Assembly: GCA_964431835.1 (NCBI GenBank)
Contig: CAYSKO010000007.1
Location: 8,997-72,996 of the forward strand
Origin: an uncultured Planctomycetia bacterium
GTDB taxonomy: Bacteria > Omnitrophota > Gorgyraeia > 2-02-FULL-51-18
DNA: 64,000 nucleotides
Reading direction: 5' to 3'
Under the pieces are notes generated by a model. That model was not told the DNA's origin, did no database searches, and was given only the letters and a program-made list of their open reading frames with translations. Positions within the stretch are counted from its first letter, which is position 1, and every line of letters starts with the position of its first letter. Shown here in pieces: positions 3,503 through 64,000 of the stretch. The translations under genes and the position numbers were made by a program.

Positions 3503-4140
3503 AGCGGGGGACGGGCGCGGTGCTGGTTTTCGCGCTTATAGCCGCCTGCGCGCCCGCGCACGCGAATTTTGGCCGCGCGACGACCCGGAAAGAACGCGAA
3601 GCCGCTCTCTCGCCCCGCGGCGCGGCTTCCCGGCTCTACGAGCGCATCCACGAATGTTTCCTGTCGGACGACCACGTTTCTGTCGAGCGGCTCTCCGGCG
3701 AGTATCTGGAGACGCCGCGCCAACCGAAGGCACAGGACGTGAAATTCCTACGTGCGCTCTCTCTCGTCAAGCTCGGCCGCGGAGCCGAAGCGCGCGCCGA
3801 GCTTGAACGCCTCGAATACGGCGCGACGAACCCCGAGAAAAAAGCCCGCGCCGCCGCGGCGATCGGCGACTCGTTCGTGGAAGAGGGCGACCATTCGTCC
3901 GCCTACCGGATTTATCAGGACACGCTCCGCCGCTACCCGTCGTTCTCCGAAGCGCCGTTTCTTCTCGAGCGCCTGGCGGCTTTCGCGCGCGAACTCGGCC
4001 ACGGACGCGAAGCCGATTATTTCGGCGGCCGCTTGTCCGCGGAATTCCCCGGGTGGGCGCCACCGGGCCCTCCGCAGAGCCGTCCTCTCGGCCGCGGCGC
4101 GGTAGAAGAACGACCTCACGACAACGCCGGACGCTCGTGA
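3499..4140 (+). CDS. Secreted hypothetical protein with TPR-like helical repeats (signal peptide MKRGTGAVLVFALIAACAPAHA)
   Basis: TTG start overlapping the miaB stop, with SD GGGAGA. An n-h-c signal peptide ends in AHA. The Ala/Leu-rich helical repeats are TPR-like. An alternative start is GTG 3520. Confidence 0.5.
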   Translation: MKRGTGAVLVFALIAACAPAHANFGRATTRKEREAALSPRGAASRLYERIHECFLSDDHVSVERLSGEYLETPRQPKAQDVKFLRALSLVKLGRGAEARAELERLEYGATNPEKKARAAAAIGDSFVEEGDHSSAYRIYQDTLRRYPSFSEAPFLLERLAAFARELGHGREADYFGGRLSAEFPGWAPPGPPQSRPLGRGAVEERPHDNAGRS

Positions 4141-5054: not shown

Positions 5055-6301
5055 GAGAGCGGGCGTTTTTGGTCAATTTTTCGTTCGAGAACGACAAGCG
5101 GTCCTCGCGGCTCGAAGATGACGCGGCGGAGCTCGAGGAACTCGCGCGGGCCGCGGGCCTCGCGGTATGCGGCTCGGTAAAATTCCGTCAGCCGCGCGCC
5201 ACGGCCGCGACGCTCGTGGGGAGCGGCAAAGCCGTCGAGCTCGCGGCCCTCGCCCGCGCGGCGAAGGCCGACGTGGTCGTTTATGGAAGCGAGCTTTCAC
5301 CGAGCCAGCAGCGCAACCTCGAGGAGGCGAACGGCCGCAAGACGATCGACCGCACGCAGCTCATCCTCGATATTTTCGCCCAGCGCGCCCGCTCGAACGA
5401 AGGCAAACTCCAGGTCGAGCTCGCGCAGCTTCAGTACCTCCTGCCGCGGCTTTCCGGAAAGGGGAACGAAATGTCCCGCTTGGGCGGCGGCGTGGGCACG
5501 CGCGGTCCGGGCGAACAGAAGCTCGAAGTCGACCGCCGGCGCGTGCGCGAGCGTGTGGCGCGTCTCACCGACGCGTTGGCCGAGCTCCAAGTGCGGCGCG
5601 GTGCGGGCATTGCGCGCAAAAAAGAGCAGAGGCTGCCGCTTTTGGCGCTCGCCGGCTACACGAACGCCGGGAAATCGAGCCTCTTCAACAGGCTCACGAA
5701 TTCCACCGGCCTCGTGAAAGACCAGCTTTTCTCCACGCTCGACACGACCACGCGTCTGGCCACGCTCCCGGGCCGCCGCGAAGCGCTTCTGGTCGACACG
5801 GTCGGTTTCGTGCGGGATTTGCCGCACCATCTCGTCGAGTCATTCAAGGCGACGCTCGAAGAGACCGTGCACGCGGATATTCTCCTTCATATCGTCGACG
5901 CAAGCCGCCCGGACCGGGATTTTCTGCAGGAATCGGTTCTTTCGGTGCTGGAGAGTCTTGGCGCCGACGAGAAGCGCACGATCCTCGTCTTCAACAAGGC
6001 CGACCGCCTCACCCCCGAAGACCGCCGCTCGCTGAAAGCCGCCGATCCCGACGCCTCGCTCGTCTCCGCCTTGACGGGCGAGGGGATCGACGCGCTCGTC
6101 GAGCGCCTCGCGGCCGCGCTGCCTGAACGGGTGACGAAACGCTTCTTCCTTCCGCCCCGGGCTTCCAGCCTTCTCCACCTCCTCTATGAAAACGGCGACG
6201 TCACCGCCCGCGTCGATGACGCGCGCGGCGTGCACGTGACCGTCACTCTCGCCCCCGAGACCGCTGAAACCTTCCTTAAGCGGCTGAAATCCTTGGAATA
6301 G
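5051..6301 (+). CDS. hflX: GTPase HflX
   Basis: HflX N-domain plus G-domain ([21 protein letters not shown]). ATGA overlap with miaA. Confidence 0.9.
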
Positions 6302-57894: not shown

Positions 57895-59433
57895 ATGGAA
57901 ACCCTTTTAATCATCGACTTCGGTTCCCAGTACAACCAGCTCATCGCCCGCCGGGTGCGCGAGTCGAAGGTGTACTGCGAGATCGTTCCGCCCACGATCA
58001 CCGCCGACCAGATCCGCGCCAAAGGGAACGTAAAGGGGATCATCCTTTCCGGCGGCCCGGCGAGCGTGTACTTAAAGAACGCGCCTCAGCTCGACGCGGG
58101 CTATCTCGAGCTCGGCCTTCCGATCTTCGGCATTTGCTACGGCATGCAGGCCCTTTCGCATCTTTTGGGTGGCAAGGTCTGCCGCGCGGAAGAGAAAGAA
58201 TTCGGCCGCGCCGATCTTTTCGTGAAAAGCTCCGGCGGCTCGCTCTTTAAGGGCGTCCCCCGGAAGTCTATTTCCTGGATGAGCCACGGCGATTACGTTT
58301 CGATCATGCCGAAAGGCTTCCAGACCACTGCCTTTACGAAGAACACCAAAGTCGCCGCATTCGAGAACGACGCGAAGAAGATCTACGGCGTCCAGTTCCA
58401 CCCCGAGGTCGCGCACTCCGAGCACGGTAAGAAGGTGATCGAGAACTTCATTAAGGTCTGCGGTTTCAAGAAGTCGTGGACGATGGAGAACTTCATCAAG
58501 GAGAAGACCCGCGAGATCAAGGAGAAGGTCGGGACCGACCACGTGATCCTCGGCCTCTCGGGCGGCGTGGATAGCTCCGTCGCCGCCGCGCTCATGGCGA
58601 AGGCGCTCGGGAAGCAGCTCACCTGCATTTTCGTGAACAACGGCCTGCTAAGGAAGAACGAGGTCGAGTACGTCCGCCAGGCATTCGCCGGCAAATTCAA
58701 TTTCAATCTCGACATCGTGGACGCCGAGAAGCATTTCCTCACCGCGCTGAAAGGCGTCACGGACCCGGAGAAGAAACGCAAGGTCATCGGCCACGAGTTC
58801 ATCTACGCCTTCGACCGCGAAGCGAAGAAAATCAAGAACGCGAAGTGGCTCGGGCAGGGGACGCTGTACCCCGACGTGATCGAGAGTAAGTCCGCCTTCG
58901 GCGGCCCCACCGCCGTCATCAAGAGCCACCACAACGTGGGCGGCCTCCCTGAGAAGATGAAGCTCAAGCTCATCGAGCCCCTCCGCGAGCTTTTCAAAGA
59001 CGAGGTCCGCGAGCTCGGGAAATCGCTCGGCCTCCCGAAAGAGCTCGTATGGCGCCACCCGTTCCCGGGCCCCGGCCTGGCCGTGCGCGTCTTGGGAGAA
59101 GTCACGAAGGAACGCTGCGACATTTTAAGGGAAGCCGACCACCGCTTCCTGGAAGAACTCCACAAGAGCGGCCTCTACACGAAGATCTGGCAAGCCTTCG
59201 CCGTCCTCCTCCCGGTCCGCTCCGTGGGCGTCATGGGCGACGAACGCACCTACGACAACGTCGTCGCCCTCCGCGCCGTCACCAGCGTCGACGGCATGAC
59301 CGCGGACTGGTTCGATATGCCGAAGGAAGTTTTGGGAAAAGTTTCTAACAGAATCATTAACGAAGTCAAAGGCGTGAACCGCGTCTGCTACGACGTGTCT
59401 AGTAAACCCCCGGCGACTATTGAATGGGAATGA
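57895..59433 (+). CDS. guaA: GMP synthase (glutamine-hydrolysing)
   Basis: GATase catalytic Cys (GICYGMQ) and the PP-loop SGGVDSSV. 512 aa. Confidence 0.95.
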
Positions 59434-59475
59434 GAAGGTAAGCATGAACCGCTTAACCGATAGGGTACGACATGG

Positions 59476-59503
59476 AGCTCAGCATCAGCTGAGTATTTTT
59501 TTT
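59476..59503 (+). terminator. Short hairpin (AGCTCAGC-atca-GCTGAGT) plus T9 run directly after guaA; the likely guaA terminator and the left border of the low-GC islet
   Basis: Read directly. Confidence 0.45.
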
Positions 59504-60137
59504 GAGCTTTTTTAAAAAAGAGAAATACCAAGACCCTTCCTTCCCTCCGCTTTTAGATAACGAAATTGAATTTATAAAAAAACTCGACGTAGATTCCGCG
59601 ACTCGATTCATTGAGACGCATGGAAAAAATAAATCCGCTGATGCCAAAGAGCATATCAGGGAAGCAAATCAATTCGAATTCGATATTTGCAATCTTTTAC
59701 TCAAAGGAGCAGGCGCGGCTTTTACATTATATTTTGCTTTGATCGCATATCTGAAGATAACGCCTTCATTTGTACCATTAATTCTTTGGGCTACTTCTGC
59801 GTATTTAGGCATGCTTCATCAGAAGAAATGGTCTCGGAGATTGTTGGGCATTGGTAAAAGAGAAAACTTAATTTCCATGGAAGCGGCACTTCAAATTTTC
59901 AAGCACAACGATGATAGATGTAAGTTCGTGATGCAGGTATTGAAAGAGCAGTTTTTGTACTTAAGCCGCATAACGGCGAAGCAGAGATTAAATCAAGCAG
60001 ACTATAAGTATGTTGTAGTATTCACAGAACTTCCTTTTTTTCTCATAAATTTACAGATTATTTTAGTTATCCTAGGAATTTTTATCGCCGCAACTCAATT
60101 ATTTCCCAACTCAGTAAGCTTAAATGTTGCTAGTTAG
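59502..60137 (+). CDS. Hypothetical membrane protein (two hydrophobic regions flanking a soluble middle segment), low-GC
   Basis: Open frame of 211 codons with an AT-rich composition. The only start is TTG inside the terminator T-run, so the true start may be an internal ATG. No recognisable domain. Confidence 0.35.
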   Translation: MSFFKKEKYQDPSFPPLLDNEIEFIKKLDVDSATRFIETHGKNKSADAKEHIREANQFEFDICNLLLKGAGAAFTLYFALIAYLKITPSFVPLILWATSAYLGMLHQKKWSRRLLGIGKRENLISMEAALQIFKHNDDRCKFVMQVLKEQFLYLSRITAKQRLNQADYKYVVVFTELPFFLINLQIILVILGIFIAATQLFPNSVSLNVAS

Positions 60138-60190
60138 TCGGCCTTAAAACAAAGTCCTGACAACGTCCTTTAAGCAAAAGAAACTGAACG

Positions 60191-60502
60191 ATGAGTGATT
60201 CGTACTCTGTTCTCGGTCTGAAGCCCGGCGCTTCGAAGGATGAGATTCGAGAGGCGTATCGCGATCTCGTGAAGGTTTGGCATCCGGATCGCTTCGCGCA
60301 CGATCCCGTTTTCCAGAAAAAGGCGCAGGAGAATCTCAAACAGATAAACAAGGCGTACGAGGAGCTTTCGAACGGGACGCAGAATCGAGCCGCGTGCGAG
60401 CGGAGCGTCCGCGTGAAAAAGCATCCCCTTCGTCTTCTGCGGGGAGCGCGAGGACTAGCGCCTCAGCCCATGCGTCGAAGCCGCGCGCGAAAGCTTCTGT
60501 GA
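60191..60502 (+). CDS. J-domain (DnaJ-like) protein
   Basis: YSVLGLKPGASKDEIREAYRDLVKVWHPDRF with the HPD motif. The Arg-rich C-terminus may be low-complexity. Confidence 0.7.
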   Translation: MSDSYSVLGLKPGASKDEIREAYRDLVKVWHPDRFAHDPVFQKKAQENLKQINKAYEELSNGTQNRAACERSVRVKKHPLRLLRGARGLAPQPMRRSRARKLL

Positions 60503-60887: not shown

Positions 60888-60936
60888 CATACCGGACGTC
60901 GTCCCGACCGACCTTTCGGGACGTCGTCCCAAAACC
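60888..60936. repeat. 49-bp direct repeat, copy 1 (CATACCGGACGTCGTCCCGACCGACCTTTCGGGACGTCGTCCCAAAACC), with an internal 7-bp-stem hairpin
   Basis: Identical at 49/49 to the copy at 61536-61584. Confidence 0.85.
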
Positions 60937-61016: not shown

Positions 61017-61496
61017 ATGAAACGACCCATTCCGCTCGTTATGTCCTTCCTCTTGCTTGCTGGCTGCGCCACGATGAGCAGTCTTCCTAAGACTGCAAAC
61101 GACGTCAATTTCGATTCGAAAGAGGGGAAGACGGGCTGGTCCAAATATGAGGAGACGTTCTTCTTCAGGGGTGTGGACAAGCGCACGACGTACCTGGCGG
61201 CAAAGTCCGGGCTTTCGGACGCGGAATTCACCGTGACACAAGCGGATTTCGAGAAGGGATACGCCAAGGGTAAGCACGGCATGACGGCTTACGACTGGAA
61301 CATCGTGGCGGGCGTGTACGTCAAAGAGATAGAGGGTGGCACTCAGGTGAAGATCGTAGTGGAAGGCTCTAAGGACATCGGCTTCATGGGTGACATGACA
61401 GACCAAAGCTGGCCTCAGAAAATTTACAAGGGTATGCGGGACTACGTCCAAGGCGAGTCCTCCATAACGGATCCGAATAAGAAGATCTTTCAATGA
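61017..61496 (+). CDS. Hypothetical lipoprotein (signal peptide MKRPIPLVMSFLLLAGC with lipobox LAGC)
   Basis: Lipobox read directly. 159 aa, bracketed by the 49-bp direct repeats. No recognised domain. Confidence 0.55.
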   Translation: MKRPIPLVMSFLLLAGCATMSSLPKTANDVNFDSKEGKTGWSKYEETFFFRGVDKRTTYLAAKSGLSDAEFTVTQADFEKGYAKGKHGMTAYDWNIVAGVYVKEIEGGTQVKIVVEGSKDIGFMGDMTDQSWPQKIYKGMRDYVQGESSITDPNKKIFQ

Positions 61497-61535: not shown

Positions 61536-61584
61536 CATACCGGACGTCGTCCCGACCGACCTTTCGGGACGTCGTCCCAAAACC
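61536..61584. repeat. 49-bp direct repeat, copy 2 (identical to 60888-60936)
   Basis: Read directly. Confidence 0.85.
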
Positions 61585-61663
61585 GGATGGATCGGCCCTT
61601 CATTCTGAAAGAGGCGTAAACAATCGCCTTAAATTAACGCTGTTGCCGACTCCGATTCCAGTC

Positions 61664-62332
61664 TCAGAGCGCGTTACTTTTTCCTATATTACAAACGGAG
61701 CAAAGGGTCCTTAGATTTTCAGTCATTGTCGCTCCACCTTTTGACCATGGCTTGATATGGTCAACATGCAAAACAACCGCCGGATCTTTCGCAGGGCTTG
61801 CACCACACATCTTGCAAATACAGTTATCTCGGATCAAAACCATAGCTCTAAGACGCCAATTGATCTTCCTTGGCCACTTTCCATGATTTATTTTAGAATT
61901 TCCGATGTTAGGGGCCACCTCCATCATCTCGGAATTATTCACAAAATCCCCGAATGCTTGCAGAGCCTTGTTCCAGGATCCAAATCGTTTTTCATAAGTG
62001 CCTAGCGCAAATTTTGAAAGACCCGCGGTTTTTTCCATATCTGACCCTACGGGCTGTCTTCCAAGCTTTTGCCAAACATCGGCTAAATTGCCGAACAACG
62101 TCTCTTCCTTGTTATTCGACGTCAGAACAATTCTTAATCCGGCCACCTCTAGCGCTGTATTCCATGCGCCAAATCGTCTAAGAATTGTGGTCTTTCCAAA
62201 TCTGCCCTTTTCATCATAGGCGGCTGCCGTTAAGGTTGTCTGTCCCATGGATTCCGCGACCCTTCGAATGTCGGCCGCCAACTCCTTATTTGGAATATTT
62301 CGCCTTCTAAGGTTAATTTCAAATTTTTTCAT
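61664..62332 (-). CDS. HNH endonuclease with two N-terminal homing-endonuclease-associated repeats
   Basis: HNH motif (HVDHIKPWSKGG...NLRTLCSVCN) and CxxC pairs. Two RFG(S/A)WN(K/T)AL repeat units are typical of HNH-associated repeats. Confidence 0.8.
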   Translation of the reverse strand: MKKFEINLRRRNIPNKELAADIRRVAESMGQTTLTAAAYDEKGRFGKTTILRRFGAWNTALEVAGLRIVLTSNNKEETLFGNLADVWQKLGRQPVGSDMEKTAGLSKFALGTYEKRFGSWNKALQAFGDFVNNSEMMEVAPNIGNSKINHGKWPRKINWRLRAMVLIRDNCICKMCGASPAKDPAVVLHVDHIKPWSKGGATMTENLRTLCSVCNIGKSNAL

Positions 62333-62336
62333 ACGC

Positions 62337-62792
62337 TCAATCCAAAAATGGCTCTATCCATTTTCTAAATAACTTTAACGCATCCGCCGGCACCACAATC
62401 GGGAAATCAACAAGCGCGTCCACGCCATGCGCCATGAAGTCGCGCGTGTTCCAGGTGACAAATGCGGATACTTTTGCCAAATGCGCCGAGCAAAGGATGG
62501 AGGCATCTCCCTTATCTAATTTGTGTAGAAATCGTTTTGCTTGAGTAGCCGTGGGTTCGGGTGCGATTTCCGGAGCGAGGGCTTTTAAAAGTTCGCGGCT
62601 TTTCTCAACCCGAATAGGAAACTTTTTGGATAAGACGCGGTCTATTTCTATAATAACCTCTTCCGAGACAACCATACTGATCGCGCCACCTTCTACGAGA
62701 CGGATAAGCTCTCCCGCCGCACCTTCCGGAGAAAGCAAAGCCGCTATGTAGGTGCTTGTATCAAAGAAGATGCGGTATCTCGGTATGGCCAT
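62337..62792 (-). CDS. vapC: PIN-domain toxin (VapC-like ribonuclease)
   Basis: N-terminal IFFDTS acidic motif and PIN fold conserved acidic residues. It lies immediately downstream of an AbrB-type antitoxin. Confidence 0.8.
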   Translation of the reverse strand: MAIPRYRIFFDTSTYIAALLSPEGAAGELIRLVEGGAISMVVSEEVIIEIDRVLSKKFPIRVEKSRELLKALAPEIAPEPTATQAKRFLHKLDKGDASILCSAHLAKVSAFVTWNTRDFMAHGVDALVDFPIVVPADALKLFRKWIEPFLD

Positions 62793-63038
62793 TTATGAAC
62801 TTTTGCTGTGGCGAATCTTTTTCAGATCCTTTAAAAGCTCATCCAGCGTGATACCTTTCTCTTTGGATTCTTTCACAAACCCCGCTGATGTAGTTTTAAA
62901 TGTAGAGAGCCCTGGGGTAATCAAAATCCCATTTCCCACTTTGGCTACGGACAAAACAGAGTCCTTCGAAAGATGAAGTGACTCCCTGATGCCTGATGGG
63001 ATCGTCACCTGTCCTTTTTCCCTCATTTTGGTTACCAT
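62793..63038 (-). CDS. vapB: AbrB/MazE/SpoVT-type antitoxin (VapB-like)
   Basis: Swapped-hairpin motif (KGQVTIPSGIRESLHL). ATG with SD GGAG, and its stop abuts the vapC start. The track ORF extends further upstream, but the 81-aa form fits the family. Confidence 0.75.
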   Translation of the reverse strand: MVTKMREKGQVTIPSGIRESLHLSKDSVLSVAKVGNGILITPGLSTFKTTSAGFVKESKEKGITLDELLKDLKKIRHSKSS

Positions 63039-63080
63039 TCTTCTTCTCCTATTTTCATACTGATTCCTACTTTCTAACAA

Positions 63081-63109
63081 AGTGTACCACAGATAGGGGT
63101 GGAATTCAA
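63081..63109 (-). promoter_or_regulatory. Candidate promoter for vapB-vapC-HNH on the minus strand: TTGAAT-17 nt-TACACT
   Basis: Reverse complement read directly. It lies about 45 nt upstream of the vapB ATG. Confidence 0.3.
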
Positions 63110-63458
63110 ATAGCAAACCCCTCTGTGCCAATGTGATCGCAAAAGCGGAGGCGTTACTCCCCGTGACACCCTATTTGCAAAACCGGGCCGCGTCGTTCAA
63201 CATAGGAGCTCTGGCGACCCCAGCCGTGCGCCTCTGCGCACGGCACTCCGGAGGCGGCTGTATAAGGGGTCAAGTCTTTCCCTGACTGCATCTGACGCGT
63301 ATCTATCGCAACGCCGTCGAATATCCGAATCCCATGCGACAAGCTTCTTGAAACGAAAGCAGCTTGAGACGATGGTCCTGTAGGACCCCATAAAATTACT
63401 TGTAGGGCCGATGGTGCAAATAATCTTTGAGTTTATTGTTTGTTTCACTGGACGCGCA

Positions 63459-64000
63459 TCAAATAAATATTTTTATTTTATGTTTTCTAGATCGCAACGC
63501 CATAAAAAAACTATAAGCCAAAGTTAAAATAGTTACAGGCAAAACAAATAATAGCGTGGTTCGACCGAATATCGGCAATAGATCGTGGGCTTGAGCGTTC
63601 AGGATCAAATAGATGATATAGAAAAAATAGTAGGCTAAAAAAATAAACCCTTCCCAGCGTGCAATCAGCCGCCCAGTTAAAAATATCGGCAAGCAAGCAA
63701 ACGCGACCGCGATCATGAACGGTAGATCAAAACCGATGAGGGATCGCGCGACGGGGACAGATCCAGCTCCGGACAACAGACCTGTCAGGCCTCCGACACC
63801 TAAAATATTGAATATGTTGCTACCGATGACATTCCCGATTGCAATATCCTTTTCTCCTTTAAGCGTTGCGACGACTGACGTGAAGATCTCCGGAAACGCT
63901 GTCCCTGCCGCGATGATCGTCAGCGAGATCACTAGATCGCTAACCCCGTACGCCTTAGCAATGGCTACAGCTCCCAATATCAGTCTATTGGACCCGAAAA
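63459..64000 (-). CDS. CaCA-family cation/calcium antiporter (YrbG-like), C-terminal half; the gene continues beyond the window end
   Basis: Alpha-2 repeat motif (GNVIGSNIFNIL) and multiple TM helices. AT-rich composition unlike the core genome. Confidence 0.7.
   Translation of the reverse strand, partial: FGSNRLILGAVAIAKAYGVSDLVISLTIIAAGTAFPEIFTSVVATLKGEKDIAIGNVIGSNIFNILGVGGLTGLLSGAGSVPVARSLIGFDLPFMIAVAFACLPIFLTGRLIARWEGFIFLAYYFFYIIYLILNAQAHDLLPIFGRTTLLFVLPVTILTLAYSFFMALRSRKHKIKIFI

Follow-up and report, generated by a model that had tools for sequence, protein, structure and literature searches.

A VapBC toxin–antitoxin cassette followed by an HNH nuclease gene, a probable passenger at a position filled by different small nucleases in related cassettes

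Contig CAYSKO010000007.1, assigned to the Omnitrophota, carries within the 64,000-nucleotide (nt) stretch analyzed here (the window) a VapBC toxin–antitoxin cassette that is followed at once by a gene for an HNH nuclease. The three genes are intact, lie on the minus strand in the same orientation, and encode an AbrB/MazE-type antitoxin of 81 amino acids (aa) (vapB, 62793..63038), a PIN-domain toxin of 151 aa (vapC, 62337..62792), and a stand-alone HNH nuclease of 222 aa (61664..62332). The stop codon of vapB, TAA, is followed directly by the ATG of vapC with a 0-nt gap, and the 4 nt GCGT separate the vapC stop codon from the ATG of the HNH gene. Because homologues of VapB measure 80–81 aa, ATG at 63038 was taken as the vapB start in preference to an upstream TTG at 63131. 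VapB matched the Pfam family MazE_antitoxin (PF04014; E=3.6e-7, 30.5 bits with a cut-off of 24.7) and the NCBIfam AbrB domain (TIGR01439; E=9e-8, 31.7 bits with a cut-off of 28.3). VapC matched Pfam PIN_3 (PF13470; E=2.5e-13, 51.3 bits), and its acidic residues D11, E45, D96, and D118 were invariant in an alignment of 20 homologues.

The third protein was matched by Pfam HNH_repeat in two stretches (E=8e-26, approximately residues 13–130) and by Pfam HNH (PF01844; E=2e-12, 47.5 bits). Two HNH_repeat units are joined through a linker to the HNH domain at the C-terminus, which is of the beta-beta-alpha-metal type and has a CxxC...CxxC zinc site. In an alignment of 24 homologues, D191, H192, N206, and N215 of the HNH motif and the zinc cysteines C173, C176, C211, and C214 were invariant, and the core aligns to IscB and other HNH cores in the PDB. 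An initial annotation, made from the letters alone, had proposed three tightly packed minus-strand open reading frames (ORFs) here, with AbrB/MazE, PIN, and HNH domains and two homing-endonuclease-associated repeats at the N-terminus of the nuclease. The ORFs and their spacing were borne out by the sequence, the domain calls and the repeats were upheld by the profile searches, and the catalytic residues, whose possible degeneracy it had raised, are not degenerate. Pfam gives the full name of HNH_repeat as homing endonuclease associated repeat; no paper on the function of this family (PF18780) was found in the literature. In an AlphaFold2 model of the HNH protein (mean predicted local distance difference test score, pLDDT, of 67.7), the HNH_repeat units were helical with pLDDT of 80–90. 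In a Foldseek search of the PDB, the model had no match at E <= 0.001; with this result and the low mean pLDDT, assignment of a structure-based function to the repeat units was dropped.

Upstream of vapB, a sigma-70-type promoter is predicted on the minus strand (63081..63109), with a −35 hexamer TTGAAT (63109–63104), a 17-nt spacer ending in TGG, which places an extended −10 TG at 63089–63088, and a −10 hexamer TACACT (63086–63081). It agrees with the consensus at 8 of 12 positions, which is below the threshold of the consensus scan, so the scan did not list it. An alignment of eight related loci nevertheless retained the −35 hexamer, the TG of the extended −10, the leader, and a GGAG Shine–Dalgarno sequence (63049–63046 in the window, 7 nt before the vapB ATG). 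Homology among these loci starts about 95 nt 5′ of the vapB ATG, and the sequence farther upstream is unrelated. The leader (63039..63080, minus strand) contains repeated GTAGGAA/GTATGAA-like motifs in columns that are near-invariant in the eight loci. Since type II toxin–antitoxin systems with AbrB-type antitoxins are known to autoregulate, these motifs are a candidate VapB operator. The pattern of conservation lends good support to the predicted promoter and operator being real.

This is the only conserved promoter of the cassette, and the HNH gene has none of its own. A promoter and terminator scan found no terminator-like site and no convincing promoter between the three genes. The composition of the genes (GC 0.43–0.49; GC at third codon positions, GC3, 0.44–0.50) differs from that of the neighboring guaA (GC 0.59, GC3 0.84), confirming that the vapB-vapC-HNH stretch is a low-GC, compositionally foreign islet. 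The promoter, the tight packing of the genes, and the islet had all been described in the initial annotation, and each of them held up.

To place the cassette among its relatives, we examined VapC homologues (n=435, many 70–91% identical, about 151 aa) and carried out a neighborhood census of 80 metagenome loci, of which 71 (L072–L142) were close relatives. A VapB homologue lies directly 5′ of vapC in 71/71 close loci, indicating that vapB-vapC is a tight, invariably linked unit in the relatives. A gene of the HNH_repeat family was found downstream of vapC in 0/45 loci having at least 700 nt of downstream sequence; one of the 45, L072, carries a different HNH gene. A nuclease gene downstream of vapC was also lacking from all of the approximately 38 distinct loci that fall outside the window's VapC clade. 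The other genes found 3′ of vapC are housekeeping or miscellaneous, and their products include a D-Ala-D-Ala ligase, a glycosyltransferase, a cyclophilin, SecA, a dehydrogenase, a PLD-like protein, an IS110 transposase, a CAAX protease, and a ribbon-helix-helix protein. VapB (80–81 aa) and VapC (150–152 aa) are alike in size and architecture irrespective of the presence of a nuclease. No model of PADLOC-DB v2 matched VapB or VapC, and none of the VapC relatives was in viral contigs.

The HNH protein belongs to a family with 4332 homologues at E <= 1e-5, uniform in architecture and about 225 aa long, whose members share about 60% identity across Omnitrophota, Planctomycetota, Alpha- and Betaproteobacteria, Elusimicrobia, Verrucomicrobia, and others. 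The VapBC family of the window was beside the HNH gene in 0/62 genomic loci of this family, and an all-against-all comparison of three genes per side in these loci yielded a largest neighbor family of four members. Genes sampled upstream of the nuclease encode Bro-N, an AAA_14/DUF4143 ATPase, a methyltransferase, DUF3644, an NYN-domain protein, OmpA, and LeuA, as well as threonyl-tRNA synthetase (gap of 1–4 nt, depending on the start codon) and N-acetyl-gamma-glutamyl-phosphate reductase (argC, 4-nt overlap). Because the upstream ORF is co-oriented in 40/51 cases and within 50 nt in 25 of them (within 10 nt in 9), sitting close behind whatever gene lies upstream is a habit of the HNH family and does not denote a fixed partner. 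Neither side is conserved as a partner: not the HNH gene for the VapBC family, and not VapBC for the HNH family. A conserved co-occurrence of the two, which the initial annotation had named as a check, was thus absent at the family level in both directions.

Some members of the HNH family do follow other toxin–antitoxin genes. A Gp49/HigB-like toxin and an HI1420-type antitoxin lie upstream of an HNH_repeat-HNH gene in L016 (gap of 76 nt), as does BrnA in L025 (86 nt). On plasmid pLiSL16 of Leptospira weilii (L243; NZ_CP092201.1, 25393–26941), an annotated AbrB/MazE and MazF pair precedes, at a distance of 269 nt and in the same orientation, an HNH gene of the HNH_repeat family whose product is 40% identical to that of the window. 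A RelE/HTH pair is nearby on this plasmid, and matching HNH genes are present on two further plasmids of Leptospira weilii. The frequency of toxin–antitoxin neighbors in the HNH family, 2/51 loci, is not clearly above chance. In IMG/VR viral contigs, full-length relatives of the HNH protein were almost absent (two weak, near full-length matches of 41–47% identity), and 0/293 matching phage records covered 80% of the protein; the family thus departs from typical phage homing endonucleases. A phage origin of the locus was dropped: viral contigs contained neither VapC relatives nor the non-coding element described below, and no cultured phage had the full-length HNH architecture.

Other contexts of the family were also observed. 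In Alphaproteobacteria, the HNH gene is found in a partly conserved context, overlapping or a few nucleotides from housekeeping genes (L036 and L042, argC upstream; L017, L032, and L059, thrS nearby). Relatives 67–69% identical to the HNH protein in L064/L065 (2977–4709) and L068–L071 (4785–5675) are preceded by a 61-aa HTH_3 protein, an arrangement that resembles the layout of a controller protein plus nuclease. L064 has a second, 288-aa HNH_repeat-HNH gene in tandem, and the neighbors include a Schlafen-like ATPase in L068 and a serine recombinase in L071. The HNH_repeat-HNH architecture is common on haloarchaeal plasmids (27–33% identity, often 2–4 copies per replicon), and in the one case inspected (NZ_CP101162.1, 42308–43279) the HNH gene is beside replication genes and a transposase.

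We then focused on the VapC clade that contains the window, defined in a neighbor-joining tree of VapC by L154, L155, L152/L153, L072, L075, L097, L237–L240, L236, and L241. Within this clade, the position directly 3′ of vapC (hereafter the slot) holds five non-orthologous small nucleases: two types of HNH_repeat-HNH, an HNH, a mini-HNH, and a GIY-YIG. In the window, the HNH_repeat-HNH gene is co-oriented with vapC at a gap of 4 nt; the same 4-nt gap precedes an HNH_repeat-HNH gene on the P0003 contig, whose product is 82% identical to that of the window and whose downstream context is different. L152 has a co-oriented HNH_repeat-HNH gene at a gap of 3 nt, only 37% identical in its product, despite 88% identity of VapC and about 85% DNA identity of vapBC to the window. 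The remaining occupants, likewise co-oriented, are a 111-aa mini-HNH in L155 (gap of 1 nt), a 208-aa HNH without HNH_repeat in L072 (26 nt), and a 97-aa GIY-YIG in L236 (66 nt). With gaps of 4, 3, 1, 26, and 66 nt, three of the five loci have the nuclease within 1–4 nt of the vapC stop codon.

A sixth gene at the slot position, in L097, has no Pfam match, and in L075 and L237–L240 vapC is followed by convergent, unrelated genes (housekeeping or other). A nuclease is present in 5/9 informative clade loci versus none of the approximately 38 distinct non-clade loci (Fisher p ~8e-5). Because the slot nucleases are unrelated to one another, their sequences point to independent events and not to one inherited insertion. 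As five different small nucleases share the same position in the clade, the adjacency of vapC and a nuclease there is neither chance nor a fixed partnership. In L072, the 8-kb flank yielded no further HNH gene. We found nothing in the literature on linkage of vapBC with HNH genes or on comparable recurrent occupation of a slot, and it appears to be undescribed that one slot behind vapC is filled recurrently, within a single clade, by a variety of HNH and GIY-YIG genes.

Beyond the nuclease gene, the window, L152, L155, and L072 become similar again over a conserved non-coding element of about 110 nt (BLASTN and alignment), whose part A lies at 61585..61652 of the window (minus strand), on the far side of the slot. 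The element has the consensus GTCAATTTAAGCCGATTGT...TTCGGAATGAAG.GCCGA.CCATCC, followed by a hairpin-prone part. Its coordinates are 6166–6266 and 2942–3033 in L152, 977–1079 in L155, 5155–5251 in L072, and 1480–1533 in L106, and L072 has an inverted partial copy just upstream of vapB (3596–3635). In L072 and L154, an inverted copy or long palindrome lies just 5′ of the vapBC promoter, so that the cassette is bracketed by inverted repeats in a manner resembling a miniature inverted-repeat transposable element (MITE). Since further copies occur elsewhere in related contigs, the element is, as judged from its distribution, a dispersed repeat of related genomes of about 45% GC, like a repetitive extragenic palindromic (REP) sequence or a MITE. 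It had no match in Rfam in the window or in four related loci, was absent from viral contigs, and folded no better than shuffled sequence in L152, L155, and L072 (3/5 loci; z = -0.08 to +0.95).

In the window, the place of part B is taken by a 49-nt hairpin-forming repeat, CATACCGGACGTCGTCCCGACCGACCTTTCGGGACGTCGTCCCAAAACC (61536..61584, minus strand; family D1 of the repeat search, with a predicted hairpin). An identical copy lies at 60888–60936, and these are the only two copies in 64 kb (2 matches versus 0 expected). This repeat is REP-like. The two copies bracket a single plus-strand ORF of 159 aa (61017–61496) that has no Pfam match and reads as a lipoprotein. Two other identities of the ~110-nt element were considered and dropped. 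An integron attC cassette was set aside on the lack of a significant hairpin in 3/5 loci and of clear core sites by eye, an integrase not having been searched for in the window. A small coding ORF opposite the element was discarded on inspection by eye, its reading frames not being conserved between loci.

The VapC closest to that of the window (91% identity) is encoded in L154. There, the start of the element follows 34 nt after the vapC stop codon, near the contig end, where the match extends over only 16–25 nt; 0/500 shuffles reached its local alignment score against L155 and L072. L154 thus appears to be an empty site, without a nuclease between vapC and the element, and the slot shows a presence/absence polymorphism: empty in L154, as far as this 16–25-nt match at a contig end goes, and with a nuclease interposed in the window, L152, L155, and L072.

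Taken together, the locus is probably a canonical VapBC cassette, acquired recently by horizontal transfer, with a promoter-less HNH gene between the vapC stop codon and a REP-like element, at a site where nucleases have been inserted repeatedly. Because sister cassettes have the slot apparently empty or holding a different small nuclease, the HNH gene looks like an optional passenger and not a fixed third component. The initial annotation had offered two interpretations, a dedicated vapB-vapC-HNH defense module and a free-standing homing-type HNH gene hitch-hiking on a toxin–antitoxin cassette. The second fits the evidence best. Against the first stand the lack of co-occurrence in 62 HNH loci or in about 38 VapBC loci outside the clade, the apparent lack of a nuclease in L154, and the lack of a PADLOC model for VapB or VapC.

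In the proposed scheme, a single transcript from the vapB promoter, autorepressed by VapB or VapBC, would cover all three genes, and the HNH protein would be made at a low, toxin–antitoxin-buffered level through translational coupling to termination of vapC. The nuclease genes would have entered the interval from the vapC stop codon to the REP-like element repeatedly and independently, by insertion or replacement, behaving, by analogy, like the promoter-less free-standing HNH and GIY-YIG homing cassettes of T-even phages. The mobile, multi-copy, and conserved vapBC pair may offer a landing site, a platform for expression and, through addiction, a means of retention, with toxin–antitoxin addiction penalizing loss of the whole block. 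VapB would neutralize VapC only, and the HNH protein may be tolerated as a site-specific, nicking, or modification-dependent enzyme and not through inhibition by VapB.

Several observations weigh against this passenger interpretation. The HNH family is unusually conserved for a selfish endonuclease, with its ~60% identity across phyla, and some Alphaproteobacteria show synteny near argC and thrS; both hint at a cellular role that is not purely selfish. Viral contigs and phage genomes contain hardly any full-length members. Pfam detected no DNA-binding module in the mini-HNH or the 97-aa GIY-YIG, which makes it doubtful that these two smallest nucleases home to specific sites. The evidence for the empty-site allele is the short contig-end match in L154. 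HNH_repeat-HNH genes also follow MazEF on the Leptospira weilii plasmid, HigB-like/HI1420, and BrnA, and the fact that one VapBC clade has recruited nucleases time and again could just as well be due to selection for joint function.

Such selection would be expected if the three genes formed a functional tripartite module, in which a VapB-controlled operon pairs a PIN RNase with a swappable DNase for defense, abortive infection, or reinforced addiction. The recruitment of five non-orthologous nucleases to one position, confined to a single VapC clade, an operon layout that implies co-expression, and the HNH_repeat-HNH genes behind other type II pairs (at 269, 76, and 86 nt) all speak for such a module, which would, by analogy, join the several modular defense systems with known swappable effectors. 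We nonetheless consider it unlikely. The association is not conserved at the family level from either side, toxin–antitoxin neighbors seen from the HNH side are not clearly above chance, the closest VapC relative (L154) appears without a nuclease, and the clade members L075 and L237–L240 carry convergent housekeeping or other genes instead. VapB and VapC have the same size and architecture whether or not a nuclease follows, and no PADLOC model matches either of them. No immunity gene for the DNase is present, and the neighbors of the cassette in the window are non-defense genes, encoding a J-domain protein, the 159-aa lipoprotein-like ORF, and a Na/Ca exchanger. A fixed three-gene toxin–antitoxin system was dropped altogether on the neighborhood censuses from the HNH and the VapBC sides, with no nuclease in about 38 loci outside the clade, and on the varying occupants and the one apparently empty site.

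Homing may also be superfluous if the REP-like element is a recombination hot spot at which illegitimate or repeat-mediated recombination lands small mobile genes, nucleases being the commonest among them. The ~110-nt element is indeed dispersed in related genomes (L152 2942–3033, inverted at L072 3596–3635, and L106), metagenome assemblies break at it or at the 49-nt repeat of the window, and inverted copies bracket the cassette in L072 and L154. This explanation is rather improbable, however, as five of six slot genes are nucleases (the sixth, in L097, having no Pfam match), the L072 flank yielded no other HNH gene and so is not generally dense in nucleases, and the slot nucleases invariably share the orientation of vapC, three of the five lying 1–4 nt from its stop codon. 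Least credible, and in our view very improbable, is chance adjacency of two mobile genes in a flexible island, or a contig that is chimeric at the repeat. Although both gene families are highly mobile and the region has a foreign composition and is bordered by a repeat where one assembly breaks, the trio is present again on a separately assembled 2,014-bp Joint Genome Institute (JGI) contig (L001). This contig overlaps by about 120 nt of unique sequence a 22-kb JGI contig (L242) that carries guaA and stops exactly before the 49-nt repeat copy at 61536–61584, where the assembler broke. The junction is consistent between assemblies, and the vapBC-HNH adjacency is probably not an assembly artefact. 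The P0003 contig, whose downstream context differs, shows the PIN-4 nt-HNH layout as well, and chance would have to account for the clade-level enrichment (p ~8e-5).

We compared the locus with known systems. The VapBC part resembles other type II VapBC systems in having the antitoxin gene first, adjacent or abutting genes, an AbrB/MazE DNA-binding N-terminus, a PIN domain with four conserved acidic residues, a promoter and leader consistent with autoregulation, and high mobility with multiple genomic contexts. What distinguishes it is the unrelated nuclease gene added, with tight translational packing, as a third gene at the 3′ end, and the conserved REP-like element behind it; standard operons are bicistronic, as are most relatives. 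By every sequence-level hallmark, the VapBC part falls within a known kind as an ordinary member, and the HNH protein is likewise ordinary within a large, uncharacterized stand-alone family. In the tripartite toxin–antitoxin systems (toxin–antitoxin–chaperone, PaaR-PaaA-ParE, and omega-epsilon-zeta), three co-transcribed genes also include a toxin–antitoxin pair, but the third gene is a regulator or chaperone conserved with the pair, whereas here it is a facultative, interchangeable nuclease.

T-even phages provide the closest precedent. The free-standing GIY-YIG and HNH endonuclease genes of phage T4 sit in intergenic regions and share the orientation of their neighbors, and seven of them form cassettes that lack a promoter and rely on promoters upstream (PMC2988022). 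The same paper cites a study whose title describes the replacement of mobC and mobE by SegH and Hef genes in related phages. The locus is like these T-even homing genes (mob, HNH; seg, GIY-YIG) in that small genes lie between or behind conserved genes, co-oriented and often promoter-less, with presence/absence polymorphism at the site and replacement of one endonuclease family by another. It differs in its host, a bacterial chromosome or island with a toxin–antitoxin cassette, and in that the HNH family of the window is far more conserved than typical homing endonucleases, with full-length relatives nearly absent from viral data.

With McrA-like and type II/IV HNH restriction enzymes, the HNH protein shares a C-terminal HNH/HNN motif with a CxxC...CxxC zinc site, and McrA (6ghc) was a PDB sequence match (E=1.5e-3). 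PADLOC matches of the HNH protein were generic and confined to the catalytic core: REase_II (weak, E=1.5e-8), mREase_IV (weak), and PtuB (weak). Unlike the restriction enzymes, to which the matches span only the catalytic core of about 60 residues, the protein has unrelated N-terminal HNH_repeat units; no methyltransferase was seen beside the HNH gene of the window, and one of 10 sampled family neighbors is a generic methyltransferase. With generic core matches for HNH only and none for VapB or VapC, assignment to a defense system known to PADLOC-DB v2 was dropped.

Only tentatively would we suggest that a dedicated slot with diverse nucleases represents the first intronless homing into a bacterial chromosomal toxin–antitoxin cassette or, failing that, an unrecognized toxin–antitoxin-controlled system with interchangeable DNases. 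If the slot is real and nuclease-driven, homing-type spread would not be confined to phages, introns, and inteins, and toxin–antitoxin cassettes would act as landing pads and retention devices for selfish genes, a form of layered genetic parasitism. If the pairing is selected, the locus would represent a toxin–antitoxin-gated DNase module with exchangeable effectors, of relevance to the discovery of defense systems. If neither applies, the locus amounts to an unremarkable VapBC cassette next to an equally unremarkable stand-alone HNH gene. In every case, tight gene packing alone is poor evidence for a fixed multi-gene system.

Upstream of the cassette, about 420 nt of apparently non-coding DNA separate vapB from a Na_Ca_ex ORF on the minus strand (63459–63977). 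Because this ORF is also low in GC (0.45), the foreign island probably extends past the window end at 64000. A second islet at 59250–60250, directly after guaA and separate from the vapBC island, is even lower in GC (0.37–0.39). It encodes a 211-aa protein without a Pfam match (ORF 59502–60137, plus strand), and is followed by a DnaJ-domain gene of host-like GC (60191–60502).

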